Shown here piece after piece: positions 19,540-36,162 of a stretch of 64,000 bases of DNA. Positions within the stretch are counted from its first letter, which is position 1. The number at the start of each line of letters is the position of its first letter. This stretch comes from Candidatus Cloacimonadales bacterium (GTDB taxonomy: Bacteria; Cloacimonadota; Cloacimonadia; Cloacimonadales; JAIOQZ01): the NCBI GenBank assembly GCA_963665815.1, contig OY762463.1:2528001-2592000 (forward strand), read 5' to 3'. A program made the position numbers and the translations under genes. The notes beneath the pieces were generated by a model. It saw only the letters and a program-made list of their open reading frames with translations, was not told the DNA's origin and made no database searches.

Positions 19540-19724
19540 TTGTGAGGAAATTTCTTATTGTTGTTGTAATCTGATTTGATCCATAAATATGTCAATATTT
19601 TGCATTCAACAGTTAATGTGGAGAGTTATTTTCTTTGTTACTAAGATAGCATCTGGAACCTTTTACAACTTGACATCATTCAAATAGTATTTTTAGTTGC
19701 AGTATGTCATACAGGAGATGTGGA

Positions 19725-21779
19725 ATGAATATATATAATCTGATTGGGGTTGCCAATAAACAATTTTTTGACGTTTTTAGCGAAAGCAGCATAAAAAAAA
19801 TGGAAGAAGGCTTAAAGCAAAAGAAAGAAAAAACTTATTTAACCTGCTTGAAGCGTGAAAAAGAAATTATAGCAAAGCCGGAAGAAATTGTAAGACAACT
19901 TATGCTTCATAAACTAGTTGAAGAATATAATTATCCTCTGGATTTAATTAGGGTTGAATATACTGTACCATTTGGACGAGAAAAGAAATTAGCAGACATT
20001 GTAATTCTCAATAAAGAGGACAAGACCAGCGTATATTGTGTTCTTGAGATAAAAAAGCATAAAGCTAAAGATGGGAAGGAACAGCTCAAAAGCTACACAA
20101 ATGCAACCGGAGCACCTCTTGCAGTCTGGACTAATGGAATGGAGATTGACTATTATGAAAGACTCGACCCAAACTATTTTGAACCTCTTTCTGACATTCC
20201 AAAGTATGATGAAACAATAGAAGATGTAAAAAATGAGATTTTCACTTACCTAGAACTTATGCAGAAAGACAGGCTTGCAGAAGAGATGAAAACGTTGAAA
20301 AAGCTGATCCAGGAAATGGAAGATGAAGTTCTGGCAAATGCCGGAGTTGATGTTTTCGAAGAAGTTTTCAAGCTCATTTTTACTAAGCTGTATGATGAAA
20401 TGGAAAGTGCCGGAGATAGAGAATTCATTGAAAGAGACTTTAAGAAAATACGCAGATATAATATTGGAATGAGTGACAGAGATATCTTGGCTCAATTGAT
20501 AGATGAAAATAAAGATAATGCTAATGATTATAGAAAACTGCAGTTCAGAAGTCGAGGTGATGCTCATCTGACTAAAAAAACAATTAACATGTTATTCCTT
20601 AAGGCCAAAAATAAATGGAGTGGAATCTTTGAAAAAGGAGAACCAATCAGGATTTCCGATGAAAACCATTTACAGATATGTGTTGGTTTCCTGCAGAATG
20701 TAAAACTTTTCAACTCCAACTTGCAGGTAATAGATGAAGCTTTTGAATATCTCGTTAATAAATCTGCCAAAGGTGAAAAAGGCCAGTACTTTACTCCCAG
20801 AAATGTTATAGATATGTGCGTTTATATGCTTAACCCTCAAGCCAATGAATACATGATTGATACTGCATGCGGCAGTTGCGGTTTTACAGTTCATACACTA
20901 TTTAATGTCTGGAAAAAACTTGTTAATGACGGTAAAGCACAATTTGCGAATTTCTCAAATCAGAAACTTACTCCTGAACAAAAAGAGTATGTTGAAAAGG
21001 TGTTTGGAATTGACTTCGATGAAAAATCTGTTCGCGTTGCCAGAACTCTGAATATGATTGCCGGTGACGGTAAAACCAATGTACTGCACTTGAATACACT
21101 CGATTATTCCAGATGGAGTGAGAAGCAAAAAAACAGAGAGTGGACAAAAACATATAATGATGGATATAACAGACTTCTGGATCTGGCTGTTGATGCCGAA
21201 AATCCGAAAGAATTTAACTTTGATATTGTTATGGCGAATCCACCATTTGCAGGAGATATAAAGGATAGTAGACTAATAGCCAACTATGAAGTTGCATTTA
21301 AAAACAATAAAAAACTCAGCAAGGTTTCCAGAGATATATTGTTTATAGAACGAAATCTGGACTTCCTTAAACCGGGTGGAAGAATGGCAATTGTTCTCCC
21401 ACAGGGACGCTTTAACAATACTTCCGATAAAAGAATAAGAGATTATGTAATGCAGAAAGCCAGACTGCTTGCTGTTGTAGGCTTAGATGGAAATACATTT
21501 AAACCGCACACAGGAACTAAAACGTCCGTTTTATTTGTGCAGAAATGGGAAGAAAATATTAATCCCGAGCTGGATGATTACCCGGTATTTATGGCTGTTT
21601 CTGAGAACTCAGGTAAGGATAACTCAGGACAGGAAATTTATGAAACCAATATGCATGGTGAATTAATGCTTGATGAACATAACCATTTGATACAGAAACA
21701 CGATCTTGCAGAGATTGCTTATGCTTTTGAAAAATGGGCTAAACAACAAGGGCTTTCGTTTTGGAGTCAGGATGAGTGA
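19725..21779 (+). CDS. Fused restriction endonuclease (HSDR_N-type) / N6-adenine DNA methyltransferase
   Basis: PEEIVRQ...ADIV...LEIK...WTNG nuclease domain; GQYFTPR, DTACGSCGF (motif I) and NPPF (motif IV). Confidence 0.92.
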   Translation: MNIYNLIGVANKQFFDVFSESSIKKMEEGLKQKKEKTYLTCLKREKEIIAKPEEIVRQLMLHKLVEEYNYPLDLIRVEYTVPFGREKKLADIVILNKEDKTSVYCVLEIKKHKAKDGKEQLKSYTNATGAPLAVWTNGMEIDYYERLDPNYFEPLSDIPKYDETIEDVKNEIFTYLELMQKDRLAEEMKTLKKLIQEMEDEVLANAGVDVFEEVFKLIFTKLYDEMESAGDREFIERDFKKIRRYNIGMSDRDILAQLIDENKDNANDYRKLQFRSRGDAHLTKKTINMLFLKAKNKWSGIFEKGEPIRISDENHLQICVGFLQNVKLFNSNLQVIDEAFEYLVNKSAKGEKGQYFTPRNVIDMCVYMLNPQANEYMIDTACGSCGFTVHTLFNVWKKLVNDGKAQFANFSNQKLTPEQKEYVEKVFGIDFDEKSVRVARTLNMIAGDGKTNVLHLNTLDYSRWSEKQKNREWTKTYNDGYNRLLDLAVDAENPKEFNFDIVMANPPFAGDIKDSRLIANYEVAFKNNKKLSKVSRDILFIERNLDFLKPGGRMAIVLPQGRFNNTSDKRIRDYVMQKARLLAVVGLDGNTFKPHTGTKTSVLFVQKWEENINPELDDYPVFMAVSENSGKDNSGQEIYETNMHGELMLDEHNHLIQKHDLAEIAYAFEKWAKQQGLSFWSQDE

Positions 21780-22164
21780 TATAATTATTTATAATAATGA
21801 CAATGGTGATGTCAGACTCAAAGTCAATTTACTGGACGAAACAGTATGGTTAACTCAAGAGCAGATTTCTGTTTTATATGGAAAAGCTAAATCAACAATT
21901 AATGAACATATAAAAAATATCTTCAGAGATGGAGAGTTAATCGAGAGTGAATCTTTAAAGAAATTCGGAATTTCCGAATTTCAGCAAAAAGTCCCTAATA
22001 GTTACAATCTCGACGTTATTATTTCGGTTGGTTACAGAGCCAGGTCACTTGAAGGTACAAAATTCAGGAGCAAAGAAAGCAAAAAACTTGTTTCAGATTT
22101 TGATAAAGATGTTAAACAACTTATAAAGAAAGTGAAAAACAATGGCACAAATAAGTTTAATTAA
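21772..22164 (+). CDS. RhuM-family protein, short, apparently internally deleted
   Basis: ETVWLTQ..I..LYG...STINEHIKNIF..GEL...YNLDVIISVGYR, then a jump to a SDFDK C-terminal segment; 130 aa. Confidence 0.75.
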   Translation: MSDIIIYNNDNGDVRLKVNLLDETVWLTQEQISVLYGKAKSTINEHIKNIFRDGELIESESLKKFGISEFQQKVPNSYNLDVIISVGYRARSLEGTKFRSKESKKLVSDFDKDVKQLIKKVKNNGTNKFN

Positions 22165-23530
22165 TAAGAGTGATATAGTTAAGAGTAATAGAATAGATTC
22201 CGAGTTCTATAGTCCTGAGTACTTGCATTACGAAAAAATTATTGATTCAATAAACTCCTTAAGTATTGTGGATATTGATTGTACTTTAGATTGCAGCGCT
22301 TTTTATCCATCAATTACAGATTATTATAATTTTGATAAAAAAGGGATACCTTTTTTGAGAGTAAATGAAATTCAAAATGGCATGTTAGAAGTTACAGACA
22401 ATACTGCATTTTTACCCAATGATATAGTTAATGAATACTCTTCCAACATTAAGATAGCTTATCCTGGTGATATTATAATTGCCAAAGGAGGAAACAGCTT
22501 GGGAAAAGTATGTATTATCACAGCTCAATATGAGTATTACTCTGTTTGCAGAGATTTAATAATTCTAAGTACCAATAATTTAAAGTATATCAATAATTAT
22601 CTGCTATGGCTGTACTTACATAGTGACTATGGTCAGAAAATGATTCTGAGAACTGCAAGTCAAACAGGTCAACCGCATATTACAATTAATTCAATAGGAA
22701 AATTGAAAATCCCCATACTGCCAGAAATAAATAATGTGATTGCTTCTCAGTTCCAAGATCACATAAAACTGAATCAACTCTCCAAACAGCTCTACAAGGA
22801 AGCAGAGAATATACTACTACAGGAGCTTAACCTATTAGATTTTAAGCCTGAGCATAAACTTACATTTGAAGCAACAAAATCTGACATAGAAAACGCAGAA
22901 AGATTTGATTCAGAGTATTTCCAGCCTAAGTATGAGGAGATAATTAAGAAAATTGAAGAATATGAAGGCGGTTGGGATTATGTTGAGAACTTACTCAGTT
23001 TTAATAGTAATAATTTTTTCCCTGATTCCAATACGGAGTATTATTACGTGCCATTATCAAAAGTGACTAATGCAGGAGAGATTCTAGAAATTGAGAAAGA
23101 ATATGGCAAAAATTTACCAACCAGAGCAAGACGAAAAGTTAAAACAGGAGAGGTAATATTATCTTCGATTGAGGGGAGTATAGAAACTTCTGCTTTGATT
23201 GGTGCCGAGAATAATGATTACATTGTTTCAAATGGATTCTATGTATTCAGTTCTAAAAAAATTAACTCCGAATCTTTGTTTGTGTTGTTCAAATCAAGTA
23301 TAATGCTTGAATTACTTAGAAAAATTTCAAAAGGAGCAATATTAGGAGGGTATGATTTAAGTAGTTTTAAAACTCTTAAAATCCCTCTTATAAAGCCTGA
23401 AGTTCAAGAGCAGATTGCAGACAAAGTCAGGGAATCACATAGACTCAGAAAAGAGAGCAAACAGCTTTTGGAAGATGCAAAGCTCATGGTTGAACAAGAA
23501 ATAGAGAAGAATGCAAAAGGGTTTGTATAG
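22142..23530 (+). CDS. R-M specificity (HsdS-like) subunit
   Basis: Two TRD-containing halves, each starting R(I/F)DSE(F/Y) and ending LKIP...; C-terminal helix EQIADKV...LLEDAKLMVE. Confidence 0.88.
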   Translation: MAQISLINKSDIVKSNRIDSEFYSPEYLHYEKIIDSINSLSIVDIDCTLDCSAFYPSITDYYNFDKKGIPFLRVNEIQNGMLEVTDNTAFLPNDIVNEYSSNIKIAYPGDIIIAKGGNSLGKVCIITAQYEYYSVCRDLIILSTNNLKYINNYLLWLYLHSDYGQKMILRTASQTGQPHITINSIGKLKIPILPEINNVIASQFQDHIKLNQLSKQLYKEAENILLQELNLLDFKPEHKLTFEATKSDIENAERFDSEYFQPKYEEIIKKIEEYEGGWDYVENLLSFNSNNFFPDSNTEYYYVPLSKVTNAGEILEIEKEYGKNLPTRARRKVKTGEVILSSIEGSIETSALIGAENNDYIVSNGFYVFSSKKINSESLFVLFKSSIMLELLRKISKGAILGGYDLSSFKTLKIPLIKPEVQEQIADKVRESHRLRKESKQLLEDAKLMVEQEIEKNAKGFV

Positions 23531-24024: not shown

Positions 24025-25107
24025 CTACTTCATCATCAGTTCAACAAACTTATCCCAGTTAAATCCTATATGTGTCAGGATAGAGATATAATCATCTTTC
24101 TCTATCTTTGTTTCAGGGGTCGGGCAGGTATCCGGAATACCATTCTTGACCAGAGCAAATGTATTCACTCTGATATTGTTTTTATGTGAAGTCTCCAGCA
24201 TTTTTCTGGTGAAATCACCCCAGCTCCAGCCAACCAGTTTCTCCGAACTGACAGTGTGCGGATTAGCCCCTTCCGTATTAGAAAGCAGTTTTTCTATAAT
24301 TCTGGCAGAATATTTATCCTGGCACTCCTGTACTACAGCGTTAATACCTATTTCCTCTATCACCTGAGTAGATATGGATTTTTCGAATAACCAACCATGA
24401 TCAGGATCGACAAGTATATGGATAATTCGTGTTTTATCTGGGTTAATAAACTGACTAACAAGCTTGGTTATTGTCTCGGTTGTAGAATCGGATTCAGATA
24501 CTGCGGAATCAAATGGGAACACAATCACAGCTTTTGCATCACCAAGGTTTGCTCTTTCGTAAGTCGATCTGTCCAGCAGTCCACCTCTCACAAATCGCAC
24601 ATCGCCTGTCATAATAATCTCTTTCGGAAGTTCTTCCAGTCGGGAATCTATGATGCATAATGGAGCGTGTTCTTCCTTTCTGCGAATCTCGGTAATGAAT
24701 TTTTCAGTCTTAGCTGTTCCCGGAAAATTGAATATGATGTATCCGTTTTTATGTGTGTTATCCATAAGTCCCATCCTTATTTTTTCTCTTCTGCTTGTCA
24801 CAAAATCAACTGAATACCCGATAATCACAGGTAAATAAGATATTGTAATTGTTCCGAAGAACATAGTCATCAGTCTGCCCCAGAGTCCTTCTGCCGGAGC
24901 ATTTCCATAGCCTACTGTCGTAGCTGTCTGCCAGGTCTGCCATATAGCTTCTATCCAGGTTGTTTTCTCAAAAAATCTGTAGCCCAGAGCAAACAAAGCA
25001 CAACTAAGCAGGAATGTAAGTATAACATTCAGCAGATGCAGCAGTGTCCGCTGGCTATGCTTAAGCTTGATTCTGAGTTTTCTTGGTAATATATAGAGTA
25101 AAAGCAT
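24025..25107 (-). CDS. Two-TM potassium channel with RCK/TrkA-type domain
   Basis: TATTVGYG selectivity filter between two TM helices; YERANLGDAKAVIV RCK-like segment. Confidence 0.9.
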   Translation of the reverse strand: MLLLYILPRKLRIKLKHSQRTLLHLLNVILTFLLSCALFALGYRFFEKTTWIEAIWQTWQTATTVGYGNAPAEGLWGRLMTMFFGTITISYLPVIIGYSVDFVTSRREKIRMGLMDNTHKNGYIIFNFPGTAKTEKFITEIRRKEEHAPLCIIDSRLEELPKEIIMTGDVRFVRGGLLDRSTYERANLGDAKAVIVFPFDSAVSESDSTTETITKLVSQFINPDKTRIIHILVDPDHGWLFEKSISTQVIEEIGINAVVQECQDKYSARIIEKLLSNTEGANPHTVSSEKLVGWSWGDFTRKMLETSHKNNIRVNTFALVKNGIPDTCPTPETKIEKDDYISILTHIGFNWDKFVELMMK

Positions 25108-25136
25108 ACGCTGTCCTTCTATAATTTGTTAAGGTT

Positions 25137-26858
25137 CTATTCTACTTTCCAGCTGTCATTTATGTAATGTTCCAGAATAATCGGATACATCAGAGTACTG
25201 ACATCATTATATTTCGACACAAGTGATTTTTTCCCGAACACGAGAGAAGCTCTGAATTGCTCAGGAGTAAGATATGATGTTTCGACGGAGAAAGAATCTA
25301 TTTCACCTATCATCTGTAACAGGAAGTCTTTTGTAATATGTTCCTTACCTGCAATGTACCAGCCCCAGTCACCGAAACTCGGAACATTATCGTGGTACGG
25401 TAATGTATTAAATCCAGCATGCTCCAATGTTCTGCCAATACAAAGGTATGCTTCTTTAGCATGGTATGGAGATGTAGACTGAATACTCATCAATCCGTCA
25501 TTTGCCAGAGCAAGATTCAGTTTTCCATAGAAAGAACTGCTGTATAATTTAGAAAGCTCCACACTGTTAGGATCAGGTAAATCCACAATAATCACATCCC
25601 ACTTTTTCTTCTGGCCATCCAGAAATTTATCTGCGTCGATATTGAAAACATTTACTCGTGCAACTCTCTTAGTAACAGGTCGTTTATTAACTAATTTACC
25701 TGTCTCCTGGTATATATCCCTGAAAAGTGTATCAGTTATGACTCCTGCTGATTTTATTGCTTTAACTTTCGCACTTGAAAACGAGTTTTCATTCAGCTTT
25801 GTCAGAATATCATTTTGGGAGCAGAATTCAACCATCTCCGGGTCAAGATCCACAAGTACAACCTGTTTTACGTCCTGGTACTTGAGAACTTCTCTGAGAG
25901 CAAGTCCGTCACCACCACCAAGAATCAGTACATTTTCTCTGCTGGCTGCAAGTTCCATAACCGGATGCACTAATTGTTCATGGTAGATTTTTTCGTCCAG
26001 ACTGGAGAACTGCAGATTCCCGTTGATGTAAAAGCGATATTCATTAATGAAAGAGTTGTGAGTCATTACCAGATGCTGATATTTTGTTGTATGTGAAAAT
26101 TCTATTTTATCTTCGTAAAGTCTCTGTTCTGTCTTGAAGTTCCAGTTTCTGTTGCTTTTATAGCCAAACAAAAGAACAGTTATTACAAGTATAAACATGA
26201 GAATCGGAATAACTTTGTTTTTTATCAGTCCATGCTTCATGAAGTACATACATGTAACAACTGCAACTCCAAAATTTAGCATTGCCAGCAGAAAACTGAT
26301 TTCTGTCAGCGGGAAGTTCTTAAGCAGTACTTTAACCCAGATCCAGGCACCAATAAACGAACCCACATAATCTGCAGCAGAGACAACTGCTACATTAGCT
26401 CTGAGTGTCTTTGAAAAGCTCTCGTTTATACGCAGGATTAGAGGTATTTCAAAGCCGATCAGGAATCCGATACTGAGAATCAGTGAATACTGCACCAGCA
26501 TGAAGTGGTTTTCCATGAAGCCGTAAGACGCATACATGGCAATAGGAGCATAACTCCCGATAATAGCCAGCAGAATCTCAATGACTATGAAAGATCTGAT
26601 CAGATTATTGTCTGAAAAGAACTTCTGCAGCCAGCTTGCAACCCCCATCATAAACAGCATAAGGGCTATGGTGATACTGAATTGTTCTATACTGCTCCCC
26701 AGAATATAGGTAGAAACAGTACTCAAAACGTATTCTGTTACGAGACCGGACGCACCGGTAGCAAGCATGGAAATCGCCAGAAAGAACGTAGCGAACGACA
26801 GTTTTTTCTGATCAGTAGCACTGACTGTTTTATTATCTGATATCGTCATCATCTCCAA
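25137..26858 (-). CDS. speE: Membrane-anchored polyamine aminopropyltransferase (spermidine synthase family)
   Basis: About 7 N-terminal TM helices; INGNLQFSSLDE..YHE, VLILGGGDGLALRE, DLPDP, KLYS and VPSFGDWG motifs. Confidence 0.92.
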   Translation of the reverse strand: MEMMTISDNKTVSATDQKKLSFATFFLAISMLATGASGLVTEYVLSTVSTYILGSSIEQFSITIALMLFMMGVASWLQKFFSDNNLIRSFIVIEILLAIIGSYAPIAMYASYGFMENHFMLVQYSLILSIGFLIGFEIPLILRINESFSKTLRANVAVVSAADYVGSFIGAWIWVKVLLKNFPLTEISFLLAMLNFGVAVVTCMYFMKHGLIKNKVIPILMFILVITVLLFGYKSNRNWNFKTEQRLYEDKIEFSHTTKYQHLVMTHNSFINEYRFYINGNLQFSSLDEKIYHEQLVHPVMELAASRENVLILGGGDGLALREVLKYQDVKQVVLVDLDPEMVEFCSQNDILTKLNENSFSSAKVKAIKSAGVITDTLFRDIYQETGKLVNKRPVTKRVARVNVFNIDADKFLDGQKKKWDVIIVDLPDPNSVELSKLYSSSFYGKLNLALANDGLMSIQSTSPYHAKEAYLCIGRTLEHAGFNTLPYHDNVPSFGDWGWYIAGKEHITKDFLLQMIGEIDSFSVETSYLTPEQFRASLVFGKKSLVSKYNDVSTLMYPIILEHYINDSWKVE

Positions 26859-27725
26859 TTAAAGCAGGGTTGAAATCAGAAGAGCAAATCCGATGTTGAT
26901 GAATTGAGCTACCAGAACAGCAGCAATGTTTTTGTCTCTTTTTATCTCTGTGTTAAGTGTTGTATGAGGAAGGAAAATCCTGTCTATCAGAGGAATGAGG
27001 ATGATTAATACGACAATCCCGATCAGTGCACTGAGACCGAATGCTTTAAGGTCTGTAACCCAGTCTGTGAATGGTCCCATAATAGATTTTCTGAGGATCA
27101 GTCCAAGAGCAATTGACACACCGGCAGCCATAACACCTGCTGAAGCATTAGCATCTTTTATCTCGTTAATCCATTTGAATGGTGTAAGTAATTCATAGAG
27201 TTTCAGTGCGATTATAAGCACTGCCTGACCAATAGCGAAGAAAGCTATTATACTGAGAAAATCAGTACATAATGAGTTCATATTGCTTTCCAGAACAGGT
27301 GTTGAATCTCCCATTATACTTGCAGATATAATCAGAGCTGAAGATATGTAAATTCCAAGCTCTACGAGTCCAACTGCAGAGTTTCCTTCTTTACAGGCTT
27401 CATCGTTTTTAATACCGTTAAGTATAATGTTATCTGCAACAAGTCTGGCAAAGAATAACAGTATAAAGCCGAGGATGCCATACACTACCAAGTCAACTAT
27501 ATCGTTCAGAAGTCCGTTGGTTGTTCCCAGAAATACTGAGCTCATTACTATCATTCCACCGAGGTAAAGCCCTGCTCTGCGTGCTCCAACCGCGAAATTT
27601 GAATTCTCTTCTATCTCATGATCATCATCTATGTTTTTTGTTCTGAAATCAGCAATTTTCTTAACAATAAAAGTAATAATCAGTGCTATTAACACACTCA
27701 CAATATCATTTAAAATTTTGTTCAT
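26859..27725 (-). CDS. DUF350 membrane protein (multi-repeat)
   Basis: Repeated EIEENSNFAVG / CKEGNSAVG / EIKDANASAG / EIKRDKNIAA motifs between TM pairs. Confidence 0.85.
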   Translation of the reverse strand: MNKILNDIVSVLIALIITFIVKKIADFRTKNIDDDHEIEENSNFAVGARRAGLYLGGMIVMSSVFLGTTNGLLNDIVDLVVYGILGFILLFFARLVADNIILNGIKNDEACKEGNSAVGLVELGIYISSALIISASIMGDSTPVLESNMNSLCTDFLSIIAFFAIGQAVLIIALKLYELLTPFKWINEIKDANASAGVMAAGVSIALGLILRKSIMGPFTDWVTDLKAFGLSALIGIVVLIILIPLIDRIFLPHTTLNTEIKRDKNIAAVLVAQFINIGFALLISTLL

Positions 27726-27739
27726 CTATTTCTCCTTGA

Positions 27740-29245
27740 TTATTTTCCGCCGGCTCCGGGACCTCTACCGCGAGATGTTCTTCCCGCTCCTCTCACAGAA
27801 GTCGCCTGACTTTTAAAGCTTTTAGTTTTTCCGTAACTTGATCCTTGATAACGTTTATCACTCTGTACTGCACTGCCATAAGTTCCATAGACATCATCGT
27901 CTCTGCCGTAGTAGGCTTTTCTACCTCTATATGAACCATGCCAGGTATTCCAGTCATTATAATAGTATCTTCTACCGCCAAACATTGTACCGTAAAAATG
28001 ATATCTACCGTACCATGCCCAGTATCTGTTTCCGCTTCTGTCTCTTTCCCAGCGTCCGCATTCTTTATTACCTACCAGAGCCATTCCTTCCGGTGTTGGC
28101 TGGGTCAGTTTCTCATCTTCGTAGAAACCGTATGGCTTGGCTACAACGTCCATACCAAGATCATCCTCGTGTTTTTCGTAAGTTTCTTCGCTTACTTCCC
28201 ACCAGTTTGTCTCGGTTCTCTCGCCATTTTCAGTAATTGCGAATTTATGATAGTATTTTTCATTAAGTTCAAGTTCTTCCGCCCAGATTTCATAGTCTGA
28301 CCCGGATTTAACCAGAAAACCGTCAGGATATTTATTGAAATGCTGTAGATATTTCTCGTATTCCTGCATTGTCAGACGTTCTTTTGTCTCTCCTACTTTT
28401 CTTGTGTTGTCATAATCAGCATAATTACTCCATGCGTATTTCACTAGAAGCACCCATGGATGAGGTTCCATTTTCATGTCTATTAAGGTTTTTGTGTAAC
28501 ACCTGTATAGCTGTTCAATCTTGAGTTTGTTATCTCCGAATTTCTTCTGAATAGTATTGAGCTCATCCGATACTAACTGACTTTTATCAACGATCAGAGC
28601 ATAATCAGGATTGTCATTCTTTGTCTCTGATTTCACCATTTTGTCAGCATTCTTCAGTGAATCCCAGTTCAAGTGAATACTTTTGATTCTGTTCTGTAGA
28701 TCTTCCTGTTTATTGCTGTAATCATCCTGTGCTTTTCGAGCCAGTTTATCATGTTCTTTAATTGTTGCTTTTGCTGTATTGAAATTCTTTTTATTAGTAT
28801 TAAGAACATCATTTGTGCTGTTAATAGCATGAAGTATTTTTTCAGCTCTTATCATTGGGTATGACGATTCTTTACCAGCATTTTTCATTACTGTTTTAAT
28901 ATCTTCCATCAGCTTCACTGCCTGAGGAATGGTTTCTTTTTTCTGCTTCTTTAACAGCGGAATCATCTGAGTTTCATACATGCTTTCAGCTTTGGCTATC
29001 TCCTGCTCAGCTTTATTCAGATGATCTTCCCAGTTTTCCTTTTCCGCATAGACTTTTACCATTGTGTAGTTCGAAGATTTTGTGAAATCCTGAAACTTTT
29101 TCCTTTTCTCAGAGGTTTTCCCTTTTACACTTGTTATTATCTCAGGTATTTCTTTTACTCTTCTTTTAAACTGCTTGTTCCAACATCCTGTCATCATCAG
29201 ACTGATTATCAGCAGCAGAAAAAGTATGTATTTTCTTTTGTTCAC
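27740..29245 (-). CDS. Lipoprotein with coiled coil and a Tyr/Gly/Arg-rich tail ending RGRGPGAGGK
   Basis: Lipobox MTGC; long helical region; PTPEGMALVGN...WAWYGRY segment; low-complexity C-terminal tail. Confidence 0.8.
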   Translation of the reverse strand: MNKRKYILFLLLIISLMMTGCWNKQFKRRVKEIPEIITSVKGKTSEKRKKFQDFTKSSNYTMVKVYAEKENWEDHLNKAEQEIAKAESMYETQMIPLLKKQKKETIPQAVKLMEDIKTVMKNAGKESSYPMIRAEKILHAINSTNDVLNTNKKNFNTAKATIKEHDKLARKAQDDYSNKQEDLQNRIKSIHLNWDSLKNADKMVKSETKNDNPDYALIVDKSQLVSDELNTIQKKFGDNKLKIEQLYRCYTKTLIDMKMEPHPWVLLVKYAWSNYADYDNTRKVGETKERLTMQEYEKYLQHFNKYPDGFLVKSGSDYEIWAEELELNEKYYHKFAITENGERTETNWWEVSEETYEKHEDDLGMDVVAKPYGFYEDEKLTQPTPEGMALVGNKECGRWERDRSGNRYWAWYGRYHFYGTMFGGRRYYYNDWNTWHGSYRGRKAYYGRDDDVYGTYGSAVQSDKRYQGSSYGKTKSFKSQATSVRGAGRTSRGRGPGAGGK

Positions 29246-29796
29246 TTATTACCTCCGTCTATATGCAAGGTCGTATAAGAATAGACTACATTATTTTCAT
29301 TCGGATAGGAATGTACCGTAGATATCTTTATCTTACATCCCTCATGCTCAAGCAGAACCATCGTTTTAGGTATTCCGGTATCATTTCCCGGAAACTCAAA
29401 AACAATACCTTTTGTTTTTTCTGCTTCAGTGTTGATTATGCTTTCAATTTTCTCAATACTTCCGGCTTCATCTATCAGTTTACACTTTTTCGCACTGAAT
29501 TCGTATTTATAGGTGTTTGAAAGCATCAGAGAGTGATTCCCATAGACTTTGTTAAGAGGACCACTCAGAAGAATCGCTGTTTCTTTTTTCACTCTGTTGC
29601 AGGCAAAAATCTCATGTAATATCAAGTCACCCATACGATAAGTTATAAGGTGACTTCCTCCAATAATCCTGAGTACTATCTTACATTCCTTACAGGAAAA
29701 AGACACTTCTTTCAGAATATTGAATTGAGATAAATCCAGTTTACCTTCAACAAGTGTGAGTATTAGATTGTTAGCGGATTGATCTAAATATTCCAT
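29242..29796 (-). CDS. DUF2617-family protein
   Basis: LRIIGGSH...EIFAC...FPG...KTMV...TVHSYP pattern matches the recalled DUF2617 motifs. Confidence 0.75.
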   Translation of the reverse strand: MEYLDQSANNLILTLVEGKLDLSQFNILKEVSFSCKECKIVLRIIGGSHLITYRMGDLILHEIFACNRVKKETAILLSGPLNKVYGNHSLMLSNTYKYEFSAKKCKLIDEAGSIEKIESIINTEAEKTKGIVFEFPGNDTGIPKTMVLLEHEGCKIKISTVHSYPNENNVVYSYTTLHIDGGNK

Positions 29797-29797
29797 T

Positions 29798-30373
29798 TTA
29801 TTTTCCCAGTGAGATTACCTCAATTTTCCTTGCTTCTCGACTAAGCCAGATCTCAAAATCCTTACGATCTTCATTCTGACTCCAGTTTTCGATAGTTATA
29901 CATTCACCGTCAGTTGCTTCAAAGTCATAAAACTTAACGTTAAATTCCTTACCATCTCTGGCTCGAACGTATTTTGCCTTGTAAGAATCATCAAACTCAT
30001 ACTTCTTATTTTTGTAGAATATATCATCTTCATCGCGAACTATCTGCTGTAGATCTGACTCATCTATTTCCTCGTTTTCATCATCATACAATTGAGAAAA
30101 ACTCAGTTCTCTCGTTGTCAGATATACCTCCAGTTCATCATCTTCTTCCCATTCTATGAAAGTAGAGTTCCCTGTCATTACATCAGTTATTTTCAGTTCA
30201 AACCATTCGCCTTCACTGTCGTAGTATTTTCCATACGGTTTAACGTGAAACAGATCGTTCTTTATCTTCATGAATCCGTCATTCCCGATATTCTTAATAT
30301 TATACTTACGTCTGTCATTAGGAGGAACGGGATTCTCCAGTTTTCGTATTAAGTCAAAACATTCGGAAAGCAT
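29798..30373 (-). CDS. DUF4178-family protein
   Basis: Y..SEGEWFE...FIEWEEDDELEV...KFYDFE...ITIENW acidic/aromatic pattern. Confidence 0.75.
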   Translation of the reverse strand: MLSECFDLIRKLENPVPPNDRRKYNIKNIGNDGFMKIKNDLFHVKPYGKYYDSEGEWFELKITDVMTGNSTFIEWEEDDELEVYLTTRELSFSQLYDDENEEIDESDLQQIVRDEDDIFYKNKKYEFDDSYKAKYVRARDGKEFNVKFYDFEATDGECITIENWSQNEDRKDFEIWLSREARKIEVISLGK

Positions 30374-30375
30374 TT

Positions 30376-31578
30376 TTACTCCTCAATCTGTTTCCTTACA
30401 GAGTTAGTAAGTGATTCAACAGAACCTTTGCCGTCTTCAACTCTTTCTCTGAGTTTCTGAGAAAGCTTAGTCAGTCTCTGGCTTGTTGCAGCACCGTTAT
30501 TGATGATTTCCTTATTAGCATTAGCCTGCTTTTTGAAAAGGTCATCAAGCTGATTACATGCTTCTTCCAGTTTATCGATGTTTACAATAGCTTCTGATCT
30601 GGCTTTTGTAATCTGATCACCTGTTTTATTAAGGCTCTTTGCTGTATCAACAAGTGTATTACCTATCGCTTCCTTAAGACCTTCCGTCACTTTTACCGAA
30701 GCACTTAATTCCGCCGCAACTACTGCAAGACCAAGACTGGCAAGAATGGATCTTTCCAGCAGATTAGACATTCTTTTAATATTGTCAAGCTGCTGAATAG
30801 TCAGTTTTGCTACCATCTGCGATCCTGCAAAAAACTGCAGATTAACATTTTCCTCCGTCTGAAGTGAGTTAATAACCGTTGTTACTGTAGCCAGAACTTC
30901 TTCTACATTCTGCTTTGAAATACCTTCCGGTAGAGTTGCTACATAAGCTGTAAGCTGATTGTGTATTCTCTGACCGATATATATGTCTCTTTCTATAAGC
31001 TGCTGCCCGGAAAGCAGCCCTTTATATATTGCATCAAGTTGAATCAGGTCAGATTTCAGCCCTTCTGAAATCTCCCACAATGTTTTCTTGATACCAGTTA
31101 AGGTTGATTTAACTGTCTCGCGTCTTTCATAGATCATGGATAAAACTTTTTCTGAACCCGGAAGTCCGGTTTTCTTGAACAGAAAAGCTACTTTGGTTGT
31201 TACTGGCTGTTGTTTGAGAACTGCCGGATTGATAAAATCTGTAGCTTTCTTGAACTCAAGCAGGGTTGCATTCTTAAGAGATCCTTCCTGATTGTCTTTC
31301 ATCAGAGTAGCTATCTTTTTATCATAAAGTTCAACCTGAGGCATCATAGCTCTGGAACCGTCGTCACCGAGAGAGTTTATTTCCTGAGAGAGCATGATGT
31401 CATTCGGGTTTGTTTTCACTTTTTCCATGAACTTATCTGCAATCATGTTTGCTTCCTGTTCTTTGTCGGCATCCATCCATTTTGGTTTTGCAGGTGCAAG
31501 TCCTTCAGATACCGATAAAGTCGGAACTAATTCACTTACTTCGTTTTGTGGAATTTCTGCTACTTGTGTATCTGCCAT
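30376..31578 (-). CDS. Toxic anion resistance protein (TelA/YaaN/KlaB family)
   Basis: 400 aa coiled-coil; ETVKSTLTGIKKTL...LKSDLIQLDAIY...ERDIYIG pattern; directly follows an XpaC-like gene. Confidence 0.75.
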   Translation of the reverse strand: MADTQVAEIPQNEVSELVPTLSVSEGLAPAKPKWMDADKEQEANMIADKFMEKVKTNPNDIMLSQEINSLGDDGSRAMMPQVELYDKKIATLMKDNQEGSLKNATLLEFKKATDFINPAVLKQQPVTTKVAFLFKKTGLPGSEKVLSMIYERRETVKSTLTGIKKTLWEISEGLKSDLIQLDAIYKGLLSGQQLIERDIYIGQRIHNQLTAYVATLPEGISKQNVEEVLATVTTVINSLQTEENVNLQFFAGSQMVAKLTIQQLDNIKRMSNLLERSILASLGLAVVAAELSASVKVTEGLKEAIGNTLVDTAKSLNKTGDQITKARSEAIVNIDKLEEACNQLDDLFKKQANANKEIINNGAATSQRLTKLSQKLRERVEDGKGSVESLTNSVRKQIEE

Positions 31579-31591
31579 TTTTACTCTCCTT

Positions 31592-32191
31592 CTATTTTAA
31601 TAGATTTGAAAATCTTAAACTTATCTCGTTTGCTTTCATATCAAAATCAGCAACTTGAGCGCTGCTTGTCAGTTCTTCTATACTTTTGAGTTCTCCGAGT
31701 AAAGCTTTCAGGCTCTGCTTGAAGTTCTCACTTTGTTCCTGTCTTTTAGCTTCATTTAAAGTGATGTATGCTTTCAGGATATCTGGTAGATAACCGGTTG
31801 CAATCTTTTCTGTCTGCCAGGTGATTTCTTTATCCGGAAACTTGTTCTTCATATGAGGAATCAGGATTATCAGTTGATCGATAATAGATTCCAAGTTTGT
31901 CAGATGTGGAATTCCTTCTACTCTGGCATCAATATTCAGCTTAAGCAGAGATTTTTTAAGTACATCCTGAGGATCTTCTTTTTGGGTTGTTTTTTTCACT
32001 GTGTTCTGTGCAGGAGCAGTTTTCTTCTTTTCCTGTTTATTAGAACCTCTTCTGAATACAACAATAGCCAGGATAATGGCAATAAACAGAATAATATAGG
32101 ATATTGGAGCGTCGGTAATTATTAAACCTGCACCACCAATCACAATTAAGATAATTAGAGAAAAAATCAAATTTTTCCACGAGAATTCCAT
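31592..32191 (-). CDS. XpaC-like membrane protein (TelA partner)
   Basis: Two N-terminal TM helices; IATGYLPDILKAYITL motif; C-terminal DF..K...LRF. Confidence 0.6.
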   Translation of the reverse strand: MEFSWKNLIFSLIILIVIGGAGLIITDAPISYIILFIAIILAIVVFRRGSNKQEKKKTAPAQNTVKKTTQKEDPQDVLKKSLLKLNIDARVEGIPHLTNLESIIDQLIILIPHMKNKFPDKEITWQTEKIATGYLPDILKAYITLNEAKRQEQSENFKQSLKALLGELKSIEELTSSAQVADFDMKANEISLRFSNLLK

Positions 32192-32572
32192 ATTGTTTCC
32201 TCCTTACGGTAAATATCATTTTCCGTGAGTTTTACATGGTCATAAAACTATTCTATTATGCAAATAATTCTTTTCCAGCATGATTTTTATTACAATGCAA
32301 ATTTATGACAATATTTTTTTTGTATTTACAATGTTTTTCTGGTTTTGAGAAGTTATAAATCATGATTATTGCAGTTTGTGATAAACAAAGGATATTTCCA
32401 GTATTCATAAAATCCATAATTATTAACACTGTAGTGCATTCAAATATATTACTGTTGACAGAAGATAATAGCTTCATTTTTTCTATTGTGTTGTATTTAA
32501 AGAACAATTTATGCACGAATTACAATAACTTCAGAGATTATGAAATGTTCGGGAAATGAAATGGAGGAAAAA

Positions 32573-33508
32573 ATGAAATTCTATAAAGTATTACTAATTT
32601 TACTCGTGTTATTCGGTTGTGCAAAAGAGAATAGAACTTTTTCAGTATCTGTTAGTAACAGAATACCCTACAAGGAAGATTTTGTTCCCTCGCAACTAAT
32701 TAAAATTGATAATGAAACTATTTTGATTGGTAATGACTTTGAACCGCACCTTGTTCTCGGTAAGATTAAGGACAATGAATTTAATGTTCTGCAGAAATTC
32801 GGGAAAAAGGGTCCGGGTCCTGAGGAATTCTCATTCTTTGATTATGGTACTGTTTCGTTTGATGGTGATTCTCTGTATGCCGTCGATGGCTTTAAGGGAA
32901 ACACAATAAAGATATATGACTATAATAATGATGAGTTCAAGTTTGTTAAAACAATTAAACATTTCAGAACTTACGAGCACTTCAAGTTTGCAGAGCATAC
33001 TCTTGAAAGTTATTTCCTGACTCTTGATGACGTTAAACTGAAAAATGTTGTTACCAGTGATACAATACGAAAGAAAACTAAATTTTCGACAGATCATGAT
33101 ATTAATGAGTTAGCCAATCATGTAACAATTCGTTACAATGAGGATTACTTGTTTATGTTTTACAATTACTTCGGTAAACTGACAATACTGGACAAGAAAT
33201 TGAATACTGTGAAAGAGATTGATTTGTGCAACACATATAAAGCTGAAAAGGAACTGGGAGTATTCTTGACAAATGATGGGTTTGAGAGAGTATACCTGTT
33301 CAGCAAAATGCTTATTCTAGATGACTCAAATTTACTGTTCTATAAGTATTCTGAAGAAGATAAAGGAAAATTCTTTCTATATAACTGGAGAAATGAAACT
33401 GCTGAAGGAGAAGCATCGGTAGATGAGCAGCTATGGCAAATGATTAAGCTCGAAGACGATATCCTGGCAACTACTGAGGATGGTTTTGTTGTGTATGAAA
33501 TAAAATAA
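32573..33508 (+). CDS. 6-bladed beta-propeller lipoprotein
   Basis: Lipobox LFGC; FGKKGPGPEEF. Confidence 0.75.
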   Translation: MKFYKVLLILLVLFGCAKENRTFSVSVSNRIPYKEDFVPSQLIKIDNETILIGNDFEPHLVLGKIKDNEFNVLQKFGKKGPGPEEFSFFDYGTVSFDGDSLYAVDGFKGNTIKIYDYNNDEFKFVKTIKHFRTYEHFKFAEHTLESYFLTLDDVKLKNVVTSDTIRKKTKFSTDHDINELANHVTIRYNEDYLFMFYNYFGKLTILDKKLNTVKEIDLCNTYKAEKELGVFLTNDGFERVYLFSKMLILDDSNLLFYKYSEEDKGKFFLYNWRNETAEGEASVDEQLWQMIKLEDDILATTEDGFVVYEIK

Positions 33509-33675
33509 TTCTCTTATTCTTCGAACTTTAGTCTTGATCCGGAATCACATAAAGAGCATTTCGTAAATACACTTTGATCAGGTATATTTACTTTTAAAAA
33601 AGTTTTATTCTTGACTATTTCTATTGAAGTTAGCTTTACTTTGAATATACGGAATCTTAAAACTAAGGAGTGCAT

Positions 33676-36162
33676 ATGTTCGCAGTAATCCTGGGTTTCA
33701 TTACAATAATTCTGGCAGTTGTGATTATCGGCAAACTGAATGATCTGAAATCAGAGACTCAGGATCATTTAAACAAAATACTGGATAAAATCAAAAAGCT
33801 TGAAAGTAAACTGAGTCATTATGAGAAAACCGATACAGGGATTACTATTGAGCCGGAACACATTGATATTCCTGAAAATTCTTCTACAGAGAACAAACAG
33901 GAAGAGGATATATCCTATTATATTCCGGCAGAATCTGTTATCTCTAAGTCTAAAGAAGCTGGACCAGAAAATTCTGTTACAGAAGATAATTTCAAAGAGG
34001 TTACTGATCAGAAGGAACAAAAAATCGAAGAGCCGATTACATCTGATGAAAAAACTGTTAAATTAACTCCGAAAATTGTAGAAGATGCTCGTACTGTTCT
34101 CAAGAAAATATGGAGCTGGATTCTGGTTGGTGAGGAGTACCGTCCGGAAAACATGTCGATGGAATATGCAATTGCAAGCACCTGGCTGATGCGCTTTGGT
34201 ATTGTTGCAATTGTTTTCTGTATTGGATACCTGCTTAACAGTAATATAGATAATAAGATACTTAGTGAAACTACTCGGGTAGTAATCTCAATTGCAGTAG
34301 GAATTGCTGTAATATTCTTTGGATTGAAGCAGATCGGAAAAGCATATCATCTTCTCGGGCAGGGATTTATTGGAGGCGGATTTGCAATTTTGTATAATAG
34401 TATATATGCCGTCGGACCTTTGTACAATAAAATTCCGATACCTCTTGCCTTCGGACTGATGTTTCTGCTGACAATATCTTCCGGACTAATAGCAGTAAAG
34501 CTGGACTCTCTGCTTATTGCTATTCTGGGGATAATTGGCGGATACTGTACACCTCTTCTGCTCAACTCGTCTGTTGGCAGTCCGAATGTATTTTATGGGT
34601 ATTTATTGATTCTCAGCTTAGGAATACTTGGTATATCACATATAAAACAATGGCGTCTGTTGAATTATCTTGGATTTATTTTTACCTGGACGCTAATTCT
34701 CTATACAGACTGTAAAATCCCGGACAAGATATACTTTGCAAATAAGATAGTATTTCTATCACTTTTCTTTATGATACACTCCATGATAACATTCTATTTT
34801 AACCTGATTAAAAGAAAACAATCTGTTATTCTTGATATCATACATTTGATATTAAATACTACTATGTTTGCAGGAATGAGCTATGAGCTGATAAATCATG
34901 TTGCAGGCAGACCTTATCCTGCAATTATGTCTATATCAGTAACCATATACTTTATAGTGGAAATTCTTTTCTTCCTGAAGATAAAAGTAACTGATAAGAA
35001 TCTGCTAACAACTCTTATTGGTATGGCTGCATTCTTTCTTATCTGGTCAATTCCACTTCTCGCAAAAAATGAATCTCTGACTATAAGCTGGGCGATCATG
35101 GCATTTGTAATGCTATGGCTGGGATTCAAATTAAAAAGCAATCTTATGAGGTGGATATCTGCAATACTATACATAATTGTAATCTACAGGGCAGGCTTCA
35201 TGGAAATACCGGACAAGTTTACAGGGAATCAATGGATTAGTAAACCGATTATTGAATACTGGAAAATGTTCCTGACCAGACTTTGGACAATTGGAACAGT
35301 GATAGCGTCAGTATTTGGAGCGCATTTACTGTGCAACCGCAGAGCAAAAGCAATTGATGAGCTTGTAATAAAAAGTGACAATGATATTAAATTACAATTC
35401 AGAGAAAGCTATTTCATGCGTTTTGTGTTCTGGGCAGGTATTATTTTCACATTTATCTACCTTTTCCTGGAAACCGGTGAAATGTTCAGTTTCAATTTGT
35501 CTCTGAGTCTTACGATTCCAATGCTTGTTTTGTGCAGCTTCACGTATTTTATCATCTCAAGATTTATGAAGAGTGAAAATGGATTGATGTTGTTTATAAC
35601 ACTGATGGCTCTTTTCATCATTGTTCTTAAACAGTATATTTATGATTTTCATTTATGGCTTTTTACTACGGAATATCATGTATTTAATTCACATCCGGGA
35701 TTGTCCATCTTCCGATTGATTCAATATGCAGGTATACTGTATGTTATATACTTTGCTGTCAGAAACTTCAGAACAAAAACAACTTTGAATGGTTTATCAA
35801 AAGGATTAACTATTATTGGACTGGTTCTTCTGATTACTTACACAACATTGGAAATCAAAACGTTTTTCTACCATTATCTGAGAGATTTTATGGATGGAGC
35901 TGTTTCTATGAACTGGGCATTTTTTGCAATTGCCTTTGTAATCTTCGGAATAGTTAAAGACAGTAAAGCTTATAGATTCTCCGGTCTGATAATGTTCCTG
36001 ATAGTAATGATAAAAGTGTTCTTCATAGATCTGTCTGAAATGCCAGTTATTTACCGTGTTCTGGCATTTTTGATTGTCGGTATTCTGATGATTTTCGGAT
36101 CTTTCTTATACTTGAAATCAAACTCACTGTTTAAATTAAAGGGAAAATCAAATGAGGATTAG
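33676..36162 (+). CDS. DUF2339 predicted membrane protein
   Basis: WLMRFGIV...GGGFAILY...GIIGGYCTPLL...IKVFFIDL...YRVLAFLIVG. Confidence 0.88.
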   Translation: MFAVILGFITIILAVVIIGKLNDLKSETQDHLNKILDKIKKLESKLSHYEKTDTGITIEPEHIDIPENSSTENKQEEDISYYIPAESVISKSKEAGPENSVTEDNFKEVTDQKEQKIEEPITSDEKTVKLTPKIVEDARTVLKKIWSWILVGEEYRPENMSMEYAIASTWLMRFGIVAIVFCIGYLLNSNIDNKILSETTRVVISIAVGIAVIFFGLKQIGKAYHLLGQGFIGGGFAILYNSIYAVGPLYNKIPIPLAFGLMFLLTISSGLIAVKLDSLLIAILGIIGGYCTPLLLNSSVGSPNVFYGYLLILSLGILGISHIKQWRLLNYLGFIFTWTLILYTDCKIPDKIYFANKIVFLSLFFMIHSMITFYFNLIKRKQSVILDIIHLILNTTMFAGMSYELINHVAGRPYPAIMSISVTIYFIVEILFFLKIKVTDKNLLTTLIGMAAFFLIWSIPLLAKNESLTISWAIMAFVMLWLGFKLKSNLMRWISAILYIIVIYRAGFMEIPDKFTGNQWISKPIIEYWKMFLTRLWTIGTVIASVFGAHLLCNRRAKAIDELVIKSDNDIKLQFRESYFMRFVFWAGIIFTFIYLFLETGEMFSFNLSLSLTIPMLVLCSFTYFIISRFMKSENGLMLFITLMALFIIVLKQYIYDFHLWLFTTEYHVFNSHPGLSIFRLIQYAGILYVIYFAVRNFRTKTTLNGLSKGLTIIGLVLLITYTTLEIKTFFYHYLRDFMDGAVSMNWAFFAIAFVIFGIVKDSKAYRFSGLIMFLIVMIKVFFIDLSEMPVIYRVLAFLIVGILMIFGSFLYLKSNSLFKLKGKSNED

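Follow-up and report, generated by a model that had tools for sequence, protein, structure and literature searches.

What does a TelA-family protein do at the head of an operon for a membrane-fused aminopropyltransferase, and is such an operon a system of its own or a variant of one that has already been described? This question was raised by an eight-gene operon located at 24025-32191 in a 64,000-nucleotide stretch of DNA from a Candidatus Cloacimonadales bacterium (GenBank assembly GCA_963665815.1, contig OY762463.1, positions 2,528,001 to 2,592,000 of the forward strand); the whole stretch is referred to here as the window. An initial annotation had proposed that the operon was an undescribed envelope-stress system in which TelA substituted for PspA. 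The results presented here indicated that the operon is very probably a version, with eight genes, of an envelope module that is conserved and horizontally scattered; in this version, the CesT/Tir-PspA pair is replaced by an anchor protein and a divergent TelA. The best explanation as a whole, in which a mechanism is added to this identity, seemed about equally likely to hold or to fail.

The operon and its published relatives

The operon contains eight open reading frames (ORFs) on the minus strand, and the gaps between them are 13, 2, 1, -4, 14, 0, and 29 bp. The ORF list yielded the same coordinates, common direction, and gaps as those in the initial annotation. The genes (g1 to g8, starting at the 5' end of the operon; lengths in amino acids [aa]) and the region in front of them are as follows:

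31592-32191, minus strand: g1, small membrane-anchored helical protein (199 aa; from hydropathy; no Pfam family)
30376-31578, minus strand: g2, divergent TelA-family protein (400 aa; all-helical, cytoplasmic; PF05816)
29798-30373, minus strand: g3, DUF4178 protein (191 aa; no transmembrane [TM] segment or signal peptide; PF13785)
29242-29796, minus strand: g4, DUF2617 protein, modeled with an S-adenosylmethionine (AdoMet)-decarboxylase-like fold (184 aa; PF10936)
27740-29245, minus strand: g5, lipoprotein (501 aa; lipobox; no Pfam family)
26859-27725, minus strand: g6, tandem DUF350 membrane protein, YjfL-like (288 aa; about eight TM helices; PF03994)
25137-26858, minus strand: g7, 7TM domain fused to a spermidine-synthase-type aminopropyltransferase (573 aa; NF002956, Spermine_synth)
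24025-25107, minus strand: g8, two-TM K+ channel, accessory member (360 aa; Ion_trans_2)
32192-32539, no strand: AT-rich intergenic region, presumed promoter region (348 bp; between the operon and a divergent gene)

Pfam searches (E <= 0.01) assigned a family to six of the eight proteins and none to g1 and g5, and no PspA or CesT family was found in any of the eight. The Pfam and NCBIfam matches agreed with the initial annotation on TelA, DUF4178, DUF2617, DUF350, the spermidine synthase (SpeE) homologue, and the K+ channel, but not on the XpaC family name given to the first gene. Specifically, g3 matched DUF4178 (PF13785) with 36.9 bits (cut-off, 25), g6 matched DUF350 (PF03994) with 156.9 bits over two stretches, and g8 matched Ion_trans_2 with 39.1 bits (cut-off, 22.5) and contained the selectivity filter TTVGYGN. 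The RCK/TrkA_N-like C-terminal domain of g8 was weak, with both matches below their cut-offs (TrkA_N, 18.5 versus 23.8; a second, 17.7 versus 24). As for expression signals, the sequence has an AGGAGG-type ribosome-binding site a few bases 5' of the ATG at 32191, and consensus scans yielded promoter-like sites (36 versus 27.9 +/- 5.2 expected) and terminator-like sites (6 versus 5.0 +/- 2.1 expected) at chance level.

Much of this gene set has been described previously. In the passages of PMC11237479 (Ravi and co-workers, mSystems 2024) on PspA-linked operons, a "second major group" combines a CesT/Tir-PspA pair with genes for a 7TM-fused spermine/spermidine-synthase-like protein, an 8TM YjfL (DUF350) protein, a novel Ctha_1186-type lipoprotein, and DUF4178, which is described there as intracellular and beta-rich. 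These passages also describe variants without the CesT/Tir-PspA pair, one of which carries DUF4247 and DUF2617, as well as versions with a ligand-sensing K+ channel. The initial annotation had noted that DUF4178, the lipoprotein, DUF350, and the TM-SpeE recur together, often with PspA, and this is what the passages report.

We compared the window operon with the published description of the PspA-linked operon rather than with its sequences. According to that description, the two operons have four core genes in common and are of similar size (six to eight genes). They differ at the head, where the CesT/Tir-PspA pair is found in one and the membrane-anchored helical protein and TelA in the other, and the window operon adds DUF2617 and a K+ channel to the second-group core. 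DUF2617, DUF350, a lipoprotein, a K+ channel, and polyamine enzymes also co-occur among the DUF4247/DUF2617 variant, an ATP-grasp/K+-channel "third group" in the same passages, and the Escherichia coli yjfIJKLMC genes. However, all three of these differ from the window operon, which has no ATP-grasp ligase, DUF4247, DUF1190, or DUF2491.

The term "TelA" has 0 occurrences in the main text of PMC11237479. In the literature searched, we found no paper that joined TelA with spermidine synthase and none that joined a transmembrane aminopropyltransferase with DUF350; among the papers listed, DUF4178 was found only in PMC11237479. The TelA-headed operon is a variant of the module published in these passages, and the TelA form itself was not found in the literature searched.

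The anchor protein and the divergent TelA

The match of g2 to the TelA family (PF05816) was barely above threshold (31.8 bits, with a cut-off of 30; model positions 36-330 of 332), and g2 was the single TelA match in the genome (35.4 bits in a genome profile search). Because the Pfam score was only just above the cut-off, a reciprocal test was made. A TelA-subfamily profile was generated from 13 close relatives and searched against 1.84 billion proteins, where it matched 169 cluster representatives at E <= 0.001. Subsequently, g2 and 110 of the 150 listed matches (those of at least 330 aa, with one 778-aa fusion left out) were scanned against Pfam, and 107 of these 111 sequences were PF05816 TelA proteins (best E, 1.7e-74). 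When the g2 subfamily was aligned with five Firmicute TelA proteins, hhalign gave 80.8% and an E value of 1.3e-5 over 270 collinear columns. There was no match of g2 to the PspA family (PF04012) even at E <= 10. On the strength of these profile comparisons, we assign g2 to a divergent TelA subfamily that is distant from Firmicute TelA, and the identification of 30376-31578 as TelA and not PspA in the initial annotation was upheld. The module-linked TelA proteins form their own subfamily, with 40-78% identity across phyla.

The AlphaFold2 (AF2) model of g2 (predicted local distance difference test [pLDDT] score, 72.7) was all-helical and contained a long helical hairpin made up of residues 142-215 and 220-292. 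One markedly hydrophobic stretch, residues 277-295 (window positions 30694-30750), is located at the end of the second long helix and abuts residues 288-332, the one region that was modeled with low confidence. This stretch may be a membrane-contact segment.

The idea that TelA takes the place of PspA held with respect to position, and the pair at the head of the operon is conserved, but the structural searches did not show a specific likeness between the two proteins. A Foldseek search of the PDB with the g2 fold yielded 0 matches at E <= 0.001, and PspA/Vipp1 appeared only at E values of 0.07-0.3. In the VIA search, Vipp1 had a Z score of 8.3 and a rank of 33, among F-BAR, CorA, ClyA-type, and designed bundles. 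The best Z score was 10.8 and the matches were generic long-helix matches only; the Z score of 8.3 for Vipp1 is under the level that is common for long helical proteins. The TelA profile had 2 chance-level matches only among PDB sequences. A complex prediction for TelA and the cytoplasmic domain of g1 had a score of 0.00, which weighs neither for nor against binding.

The initial annotation had also pointed to the lack of PspA as an argument for substitution. A profile search of the whole genome, a single contig of 3.96 Mb with 98.7% completeness, did not find PspA (PF04012), so the observation itself was correct. However, PspA reached the cut-off in 0 of 232 Cloacimonadota species genomes. 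This indicated that the lack of PspA is a lineage trait, and its absence here is no evidence for TelA replacing PspA. Genome-level mutual exclusivity of PspA and TelA was discarded as a test for the same reason. Judging from its position, TelA might nevertheless substitute functionally for PspA.

In the case of g1, hydropathy indicated two N-terminal TM helices and a K/R-rich stretch after TM2, followed by about 120 aa that would form a helical domain in the cytoplasm. The initial annotation had identified this protein as XpaC, and the family searches did not bear this out. No Pfam family was matched by g1 at E <= 10, and PF10112 (XpaC / Halogen_Hydrol) was found in none of the six g1 members at E <= 10 and in none of the 21 g1 relatives from a word-based homologue search. 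An alignment of 18 g1 members with four annotated XpaC proteins gave 22% in hhalign, over the membrane helices only, although the XpaC alignment was small and distant homology is possible. A fifth "XpaC" candidate ORF (L073:1862-2470) failed to align and was dropped, and searches of genomes also gave the XpaC assignment no support. The Atlas feature score of g1 to a cluster auto-named BCIP-hydrolysis protein, which is an XpaC-type name, was 0.90, and we regarded this as a lead only. As judged from these sequence comparisons, g1 is an XpaC-like anchor by position and architecture and not a family member.

The likeness to the Firmicute xpaC-telA pair (xpaC-yaaN in Bacillus subtilis) lies in the arrangement. 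There too, the gene directly 5' of telA is that of a small protein with N-terminal membrane helices and a helical domain in the cytoplasm, and the spacings in four annotated loci were +12, +18, and +31 nucleotides (nt) and one 23-nt overlap, compared to 13 here. The Firmicute pair differs in that it was linked to a polyamine module in 0 of 4 loci, in that g1 is not a detectable XpaC, and in that the TelA found here belongs to a distant subfamily. The passage of PMC6811118 on the xpaC-telA pair reports that it was upregulated in daptomycin-resistant Enterococcus faecium.

Conservation and distribution of the module

The TelA profile identified six loci in a collection of species genomes, three in Cloacimonadota and three in Campylobacterota/Arcobacter (individual loci are designated by L numbers). 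TelA, DUF4178, DUF2617, the lipoprotein, and DUF350 were found in the same order in all six loci, and a g1 homologue was located directly 5' of the TelA gene in each of them. Five of the six loci contained SpeE; L007 ends before SpeE, and the SpeE gene of L009 is divergent and located just upstream. A K+ channel gene followed SpeE only in L006 and L008, the two Cloacimonadota loci whose sequence extends to this point.

When metagenomes were scanned with two SpeE motifs of this subfamily as anchors, 58 loci were obtained, in which components were scored by tblastn. Twenty-nine of the 58 loci hold at least 4.25 kb upstream of SpeE, and the denominators of 29 refer to these:

TelA: 27 of 29
g1, directly 5' of the TelA gene: 26 of 29
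DUF4178: 27 of 29 by tblastn (the remaining two carry Pfam DUF4178 ORFs)
Lipoprotein: 29 of 29
DUF350: 29 of 29
DUF2617: 5 of 29

In 42 of the metagenome loci, the sequence extended far enough downstream of SpeE to be scored for the K+ channel gene, which was located directly 3' of SpeE in 10 of them; in 5 others it was found at a different position within the locus. Both the K+ channel and DUF2617 are accessory to the module. The core of the eight-gene set in the initial annotation was conserved and these two genes were not fixed members, and the proposed linkage of TelA to the module was seen in the other genomes and in the metagenome loci. The same order in two phyla and many metagenome contigs indicated that the arrangement is far beyond chance.

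Some features of the sample temper these counts. Because the metagenome scan used SpeE motifs of this subfamily, 27 of 29 overstates the frequency of TelA among TM-SpeE modules generally. In addition, several metagenome loci were near-identical to each other, and the high-GC loci were frameshifted in the ORF calls.

Two subtypes of the module were apparent. Low-GC loci (subtype 1) carried DUF2617 and a two-helix anchor, and loci with a GC content of 0.37-0.56 (subtype 2) carried a one-helix anchor and no DUF2617. In two low-GC loci (L009:6196-7865 and L048:5312-7050), DUF2617 was extended at its C-terminus by about 130 aa of additional helical sequence, and a gene for an SdiA-regulated/phytase-like beta-propeller was inserted between DUF2617 and the lipoprotein. 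The neighbors of the modules were examined via a Pfam scan of 90 ORFs, namely 86 of the 154 cluster representatives of unlabeled ORFs near modules and four module ORFs; those left out were mainly antisense ORFs of frameshifted high-GC loci and more distant ORFs. No PspA was found among the 90 ORFs. Because the neighbors were mostly unrelated housekeeping genes, it seemed that the module ends where the operon ends.

The distribution of the TelA subfamily was patchy. It was found in 4 of 232 Cloacimonadota species genomes (3 of 66 genera, three families) and in 1 of 401 sampled Campylobacterota, which was the centre genome itself. A search for plasmid SpeE genes matched 133 records, of which 5 were examined. 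The Alteromonas mediterranea plasmid carried genes for SpeE, SpeD, a g1-like protein, a "toxic anion resistance protein" (the annotation pipeline's name for TelA), DUF4178, a lipoprotein, and DUF350; this connects the module with both decarboxylated AdoMet and mobile DNA. The other four TM-SpeE loci (Ralstonia, Burkholderia, Ensifer, and Novosphingobium) had different contexts, and PspA was found in 0 of the 5 examined plasmid loci. The GC content of the window operon (0.36-0.40) is slightly above that of its flanks (0.31-0.36). A type I restriction-modification cluster adjoins the operon at 19704-23530 (plus strand) and consists of an N6_Mtase/HSDR_N fusion, a short RhuM-like fragment, and HsdS. 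In Arcobacter, a gene for an IS3-family transposase (rve, HTH_Tnp_1) is located directly upstream of the operon copy (L010:7852-9036). The patchy distribution, plasmid copy, restriction-modification neighbor, GC offset, and IS3 transposase together point to lateral spread.

The region around the restriction-modification cluster looks like a variable region. The HsdS-like flank protein was absent from 5 relatives at E <= 1e-30; both of the flanking proteins that were searched in these relatives had no match at this threshold, and an empty insertion site was not definable. On the other side of the operon, a divergent gene for a 322-aa lipoprotein-like protein with no Pfam family (32540-33508, plus strand) is followed by a gene for an 830-aa DUF2339 membrane protein (33670-36162, plus strand). 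L008, a locus from the same genus, likewise has the divergent lipoprotein-like gene next to the operon.

Other genes were found near modules in individual loci. A PAP2 phosphatase gene is located after SpeE in L036, L030, and L049, and GNAT acetyltransferase genes adjoin the module in L006 and L044; both are potential additional accessory genes. A flavin amine oxidase gene is located directly 3' of the TM-SpeE gene, or of the SpeE and K+ channel genes, in L056, L059, L060, and a Ralstonia megaplasmid (L078). The Ralstonia arrangement has no TelA, DUF4178, or lipoprotein and represents a different type of TM-SpeE module. In L014, a canonical TelA (8514-9665; 188.8 bits) is encoded 6 kb downstream of a SpeE/K+-channel pair, among genes with VWA, NIT, and OmpA domains.

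Enzymes, lipoprotein, and a possible mechanism

The family matches of g7 were strong: 594.5 bits to the NCBIfam polyamine aminopropyltransferase model NF002956 (cut-off, 472) and 121.2 bits to Pfam Spermine_synth. Compared to the genome's soluble SpeE (27% identity; E, 7e-22), g7 has kept the YHE, GGGDG, and D-x-x-DP motifs, which were invariant in five of five g7 homologues and which we take to be the AdoMet-binding and catalytic motifs of spermidine synthases. By these sequence criteria, g7 is an aminopropyltransferase with intact enzyme motifs. The ordinary polyamine cluster of the genome (1007384-1010704) contains speD (126 aa), a gene for a pyruvoyl arginine decarboxylase, and the soluble speE. 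Because the soluble speE is located elsewhere in the genome, g7 would be a second aminopropyltransferase.

Family-averaged hydropathy indicated that g7 has seven TM helices. In 45 homologues, the mean number of K and R residues was 2.64 in the N-terminus and then 0.02, 1.87, 0.00, 2.40, 0.09, and 2.84 in successive loops. Loops that are rich in K and R face the cytoplasm according to the positive-inside rule. With seven helices, the alternating K and R content implies that the protein starts in the cytoplasm and that the domain following TM7 lies outside, where the lipoprotein is also located. Thus, the catalytic domain of g7 is predicted to be located on the outer face of the membrane.

The DUF2617 protein, g4 (72.1 bits to PF10936), had a well-defined AF2 model (pLDDT, 88.8), which was searched with VIA-align against 48,161 solved chains with no prefilter. 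The top match, and the only one with a Z score of at least 8, was the human AdoMet decarboxylase (AdoMetDC) proenzyme (1msv_A; Z score, 9.1; root mean square deviation, 3.8; 152 of 184 residues). The matches ranked 2 to 4 were all AdoMetDC-fold proteins: the spermine synthase N-domain (3c6k; Z score, 6.6), Thermotoga maritima AdoMetDC (1vr7; Z score, 6.3), and Trypanosoma brucei AdoMetDC/prozyme (5tvf; Z score, 5.9). We conclude from the model that g4 has an AdoMetDC-like alpha-beta sandwich fold, and this makes it a candidate source of decarboxylated AdoMet. The bacterial class 1 pyruvoyl enzyme (SpeD/SpeH, PF02675) was matched over one half, with the Z score of 6.3. No significant sequence match to AdoMet decarboxylases was found, and the eukaryotic enzyme is roughly twice as large as g4. 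Residues Q6, G46, S48, H49, E62, H162, Y164, and E167 were invariant in 11 DUF2617 sequences; of these, S48, H49, H162, and E167 are candidate functional residues. When compared by eye, Ser48-His49 and the T-x-H-x-Y-P-N-E motif of DUF2617 resemble E-S-H and H-T-W-P-E of the genome's SpeD. None of 5 other genomes with a DUF2617-type operon, one of which is titled a complete genome, had a match to SpeD (PF02675), and the Alteromonas plasmid version has speD and no DUF2617. The initial annotation had stated that there is no SpeD in the operon; this was correct in that no PF02675 match was found, but it may mislead functionally if the AdoMetDC-like fold of DUF2617 (Z score, 9.1) is considered.

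The g5 lipoprotein has a lipobox (MMTGC). Its N-terminal half is a coiled coil, its C-terminal domain is rich in aromatic residues, and its Gly/Arg-rich tail ends in Gly-Lys. Such an ending after a Gly/Arg-rich tail was found in 33 of 35 distinct g5 homologues of at least 400 aa, and the two exceptions were ORFs from loci with fragmented calls. In the aligned C-terminal 200 residues of 15 g5 sequences, the last Gly and Lys (G199 and K200) were invariant. The E. coli K-12 DUF1190 lipoproteins YjfM and YgiB are encoded next to YjfC and YgiC, which are annotated as peptide--spermidine ligases. YjfM and YgiB have Gly/Arg/Ser-rich tails that end in Gly-Gly, preceded by T-V-(S/T)-R-G-G-(Y/F)-G, whereas the lipoproteins of the g5 type end in Gly-Lys; the tails are otherwise similar by eye. 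The portion of PMC11762307 on the ligase states that the peptide--spermidine ligase activity has been shown and that the physiological substrate is unknown. The Gly-Gly tails of YjfM and YgiB may point to the physiological substrate of the ligases.

These features can be combined into a mechanism, which we put forward tentatively: DUF2617 as donor source, an outward-facing g7 that aminopropylates an envelope amine, TelA as a scaffold or sensor, and a K+ channel that makes adjustments. The g1 domain, TelA, DUF4178, and DUF2617 would be on the cytoplasmic side of the membrane and the lipoprotein and the g7 catalytic domain on the outer side, joined by g6 and the 7TM part of g7. DUF2617 or the housekeeping SpeD would supply decarboxylated AdoMet in the cytoplasm, and the 7TM domain of g7 would present this donor to the outward-facing catalytic domain. 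The aminopropyl group would then be moved onto an envelope amine, for which the lipoprotein offers the best candidate in the epsilon-amine of its C-terminal lysine, and the aminopropylated lipoprotein would gain a spermidine-like cationic tail. The tandem DUF350 protein (g6) would serve as a membrane partner. With g1 keeping it at the membrane, TelA would act with DUF4178 as the scaffold or sensor through which the enzyme responds to membrane state, as PspA would in the sister operons, and the K+ channel would adjust ion balance or membrane potential or be gated by the product. We infer every biochemical step, as well as the binding of TelA to g1, from the gene content, motifs, and models described above.

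In its strongest form, this mechanism would be a self-contained protein-polyamination pathway, in which DUF2617 is a compact AdoMet decarboxylase, g7 modifies the lipoprotein lysine, and TelA is a membrane-state sensor and scaffold. This form is rather unlikely in our estimation. If it were true, the lysine product would differ by one carboxylate from the amide that the ATP-grasp ligases (YjfC and YgiC) would form on Gly-Gly lipoproteins, there would be two convergent routes to a polyamine-tipped envelope lipoprotein, and TelA would have its first mechanistic role.

A number of results count against parts of the proposed mechanism. Its weakest point is the donor route, because the cytoplasm is where decarboxylated AdoMet is produced, whereas g7 is predicted to have its catalytic domain outside; this outward topology is based only on the positive-inside rule and on the seven helices counted in the hydropathy profile. 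In the case of g4, hhalign gave 0.66% with the genome's SpeD, no PF02675 match and no PDB sequence match were found, and a Foldseek search yielded 0 matches at E <= 0.001, with SciW and hot-dog folds as the top weak rows. DUF2617 was also missing from 24 of the 29 metagenome loci, and the window's genome carries a normal speD elsewhere. The C-terminal domain of g5 was not detectably related to DUF1190 (hhalign, 0.07% and 0.27%), so the E. coli analogy depends on a short tail seen by eye. Finally, the terminal lysine might serve another purpose, such as peptidoglycan cross-linking as in Braun's lipoprotein, which is attached to peptidoglycan via its C-terminal lysine.

Three other explanations of the operon were weighed against this mechanism. 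One is that a free polyamine (spermidine, norspermidine, or a longer one) is made at or across the membrane and stabilizes the envelope; the lipoprotein and DUF350 would bind or export it, TelA and DUF4178 would regulate, the K+ channel would compensate charge, and no protein would be modified. The catalytic motifs of g7, which are those of ordinary spermidine synthases, fit this idea, as does the protection of the Pseudomonas outer membrane by surface spermidine. The flavin amine oxidases encoded after TM-SpeE in L056, L059, L060, and the Ralstonia megaplasmid would suit a free pool, and the relevant passages of PMC11237479 discuss polyamine concentration and membrane stability. However, a free product leaves the Gly-Lys end of the lipoprotein (33 of 35) unexplained, and since speD and a soluble speE are already present in the genome, there would have to be a particular reason for another synthase with the same product. 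We consider this explanation rather doubtful. An improbable alternative is that the last lysine of the lipoprotein is a peptidoglycan anchor, which would make the protein a structural tether, and that g7 acts on a lipid head group or small amine. Although a coiled-coil half and a C-terminal lysine are what one would look for in such a tether, the lipoprotein was linked to TM-SpeE and DUF350 in 29 of 29 loci, which suggests a functional tie to the enzyme, and the long flexible Gly/Arg tail of g5 is unlike Lpp.

The remaining explanation concerns the operon as a unit: the anchor and TelA might be an independent stress pair that happens to precede a separate polyamine module and has nothing functionally in common with it. 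It is true that xpaC-telA stands alone in four of four annotated Firmicute loci, that TelA-less modules exist (L059 and L067), and that the canonical TelA of L014 is found in a different neighborhood. Nevertheless, two phyla and a plasmid share the gene order and the tight spacing, TelA was present in 27 of 29 informative loci as a subfamily of its own with 40-78% identity across phyla, and the gap between the TelA and DUF4178 genes is only 2 bp, so we regard two unrelated units as very improbable.

The identification of the operon as a TelA-headed version of the envelope module bears on two protein families. TelA is widespread and has been linked to tellurite, bacteriocin, and daptomycin tolerance, and we know of no mechanism for it; its presence at the position of PspA in a sister operon, across phyla, provides a concrete hypothesis for the role of TelA. 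The membrane-fused aminopropyltransferase family is common, and to our knowledge its substrate is unknown. The AdoMetDC-like fold modeled for DUF2617, the Gly-Lys end of the lipoprotein, and the predicted outside location of the catalytic domain are clues to the role of this enzyme. Similar reasoning might also account for the physiological substrate of YjfC and YgiC, the E. coli peptide-spermidine ligases, which are likewise encoded beside lipoproteins.

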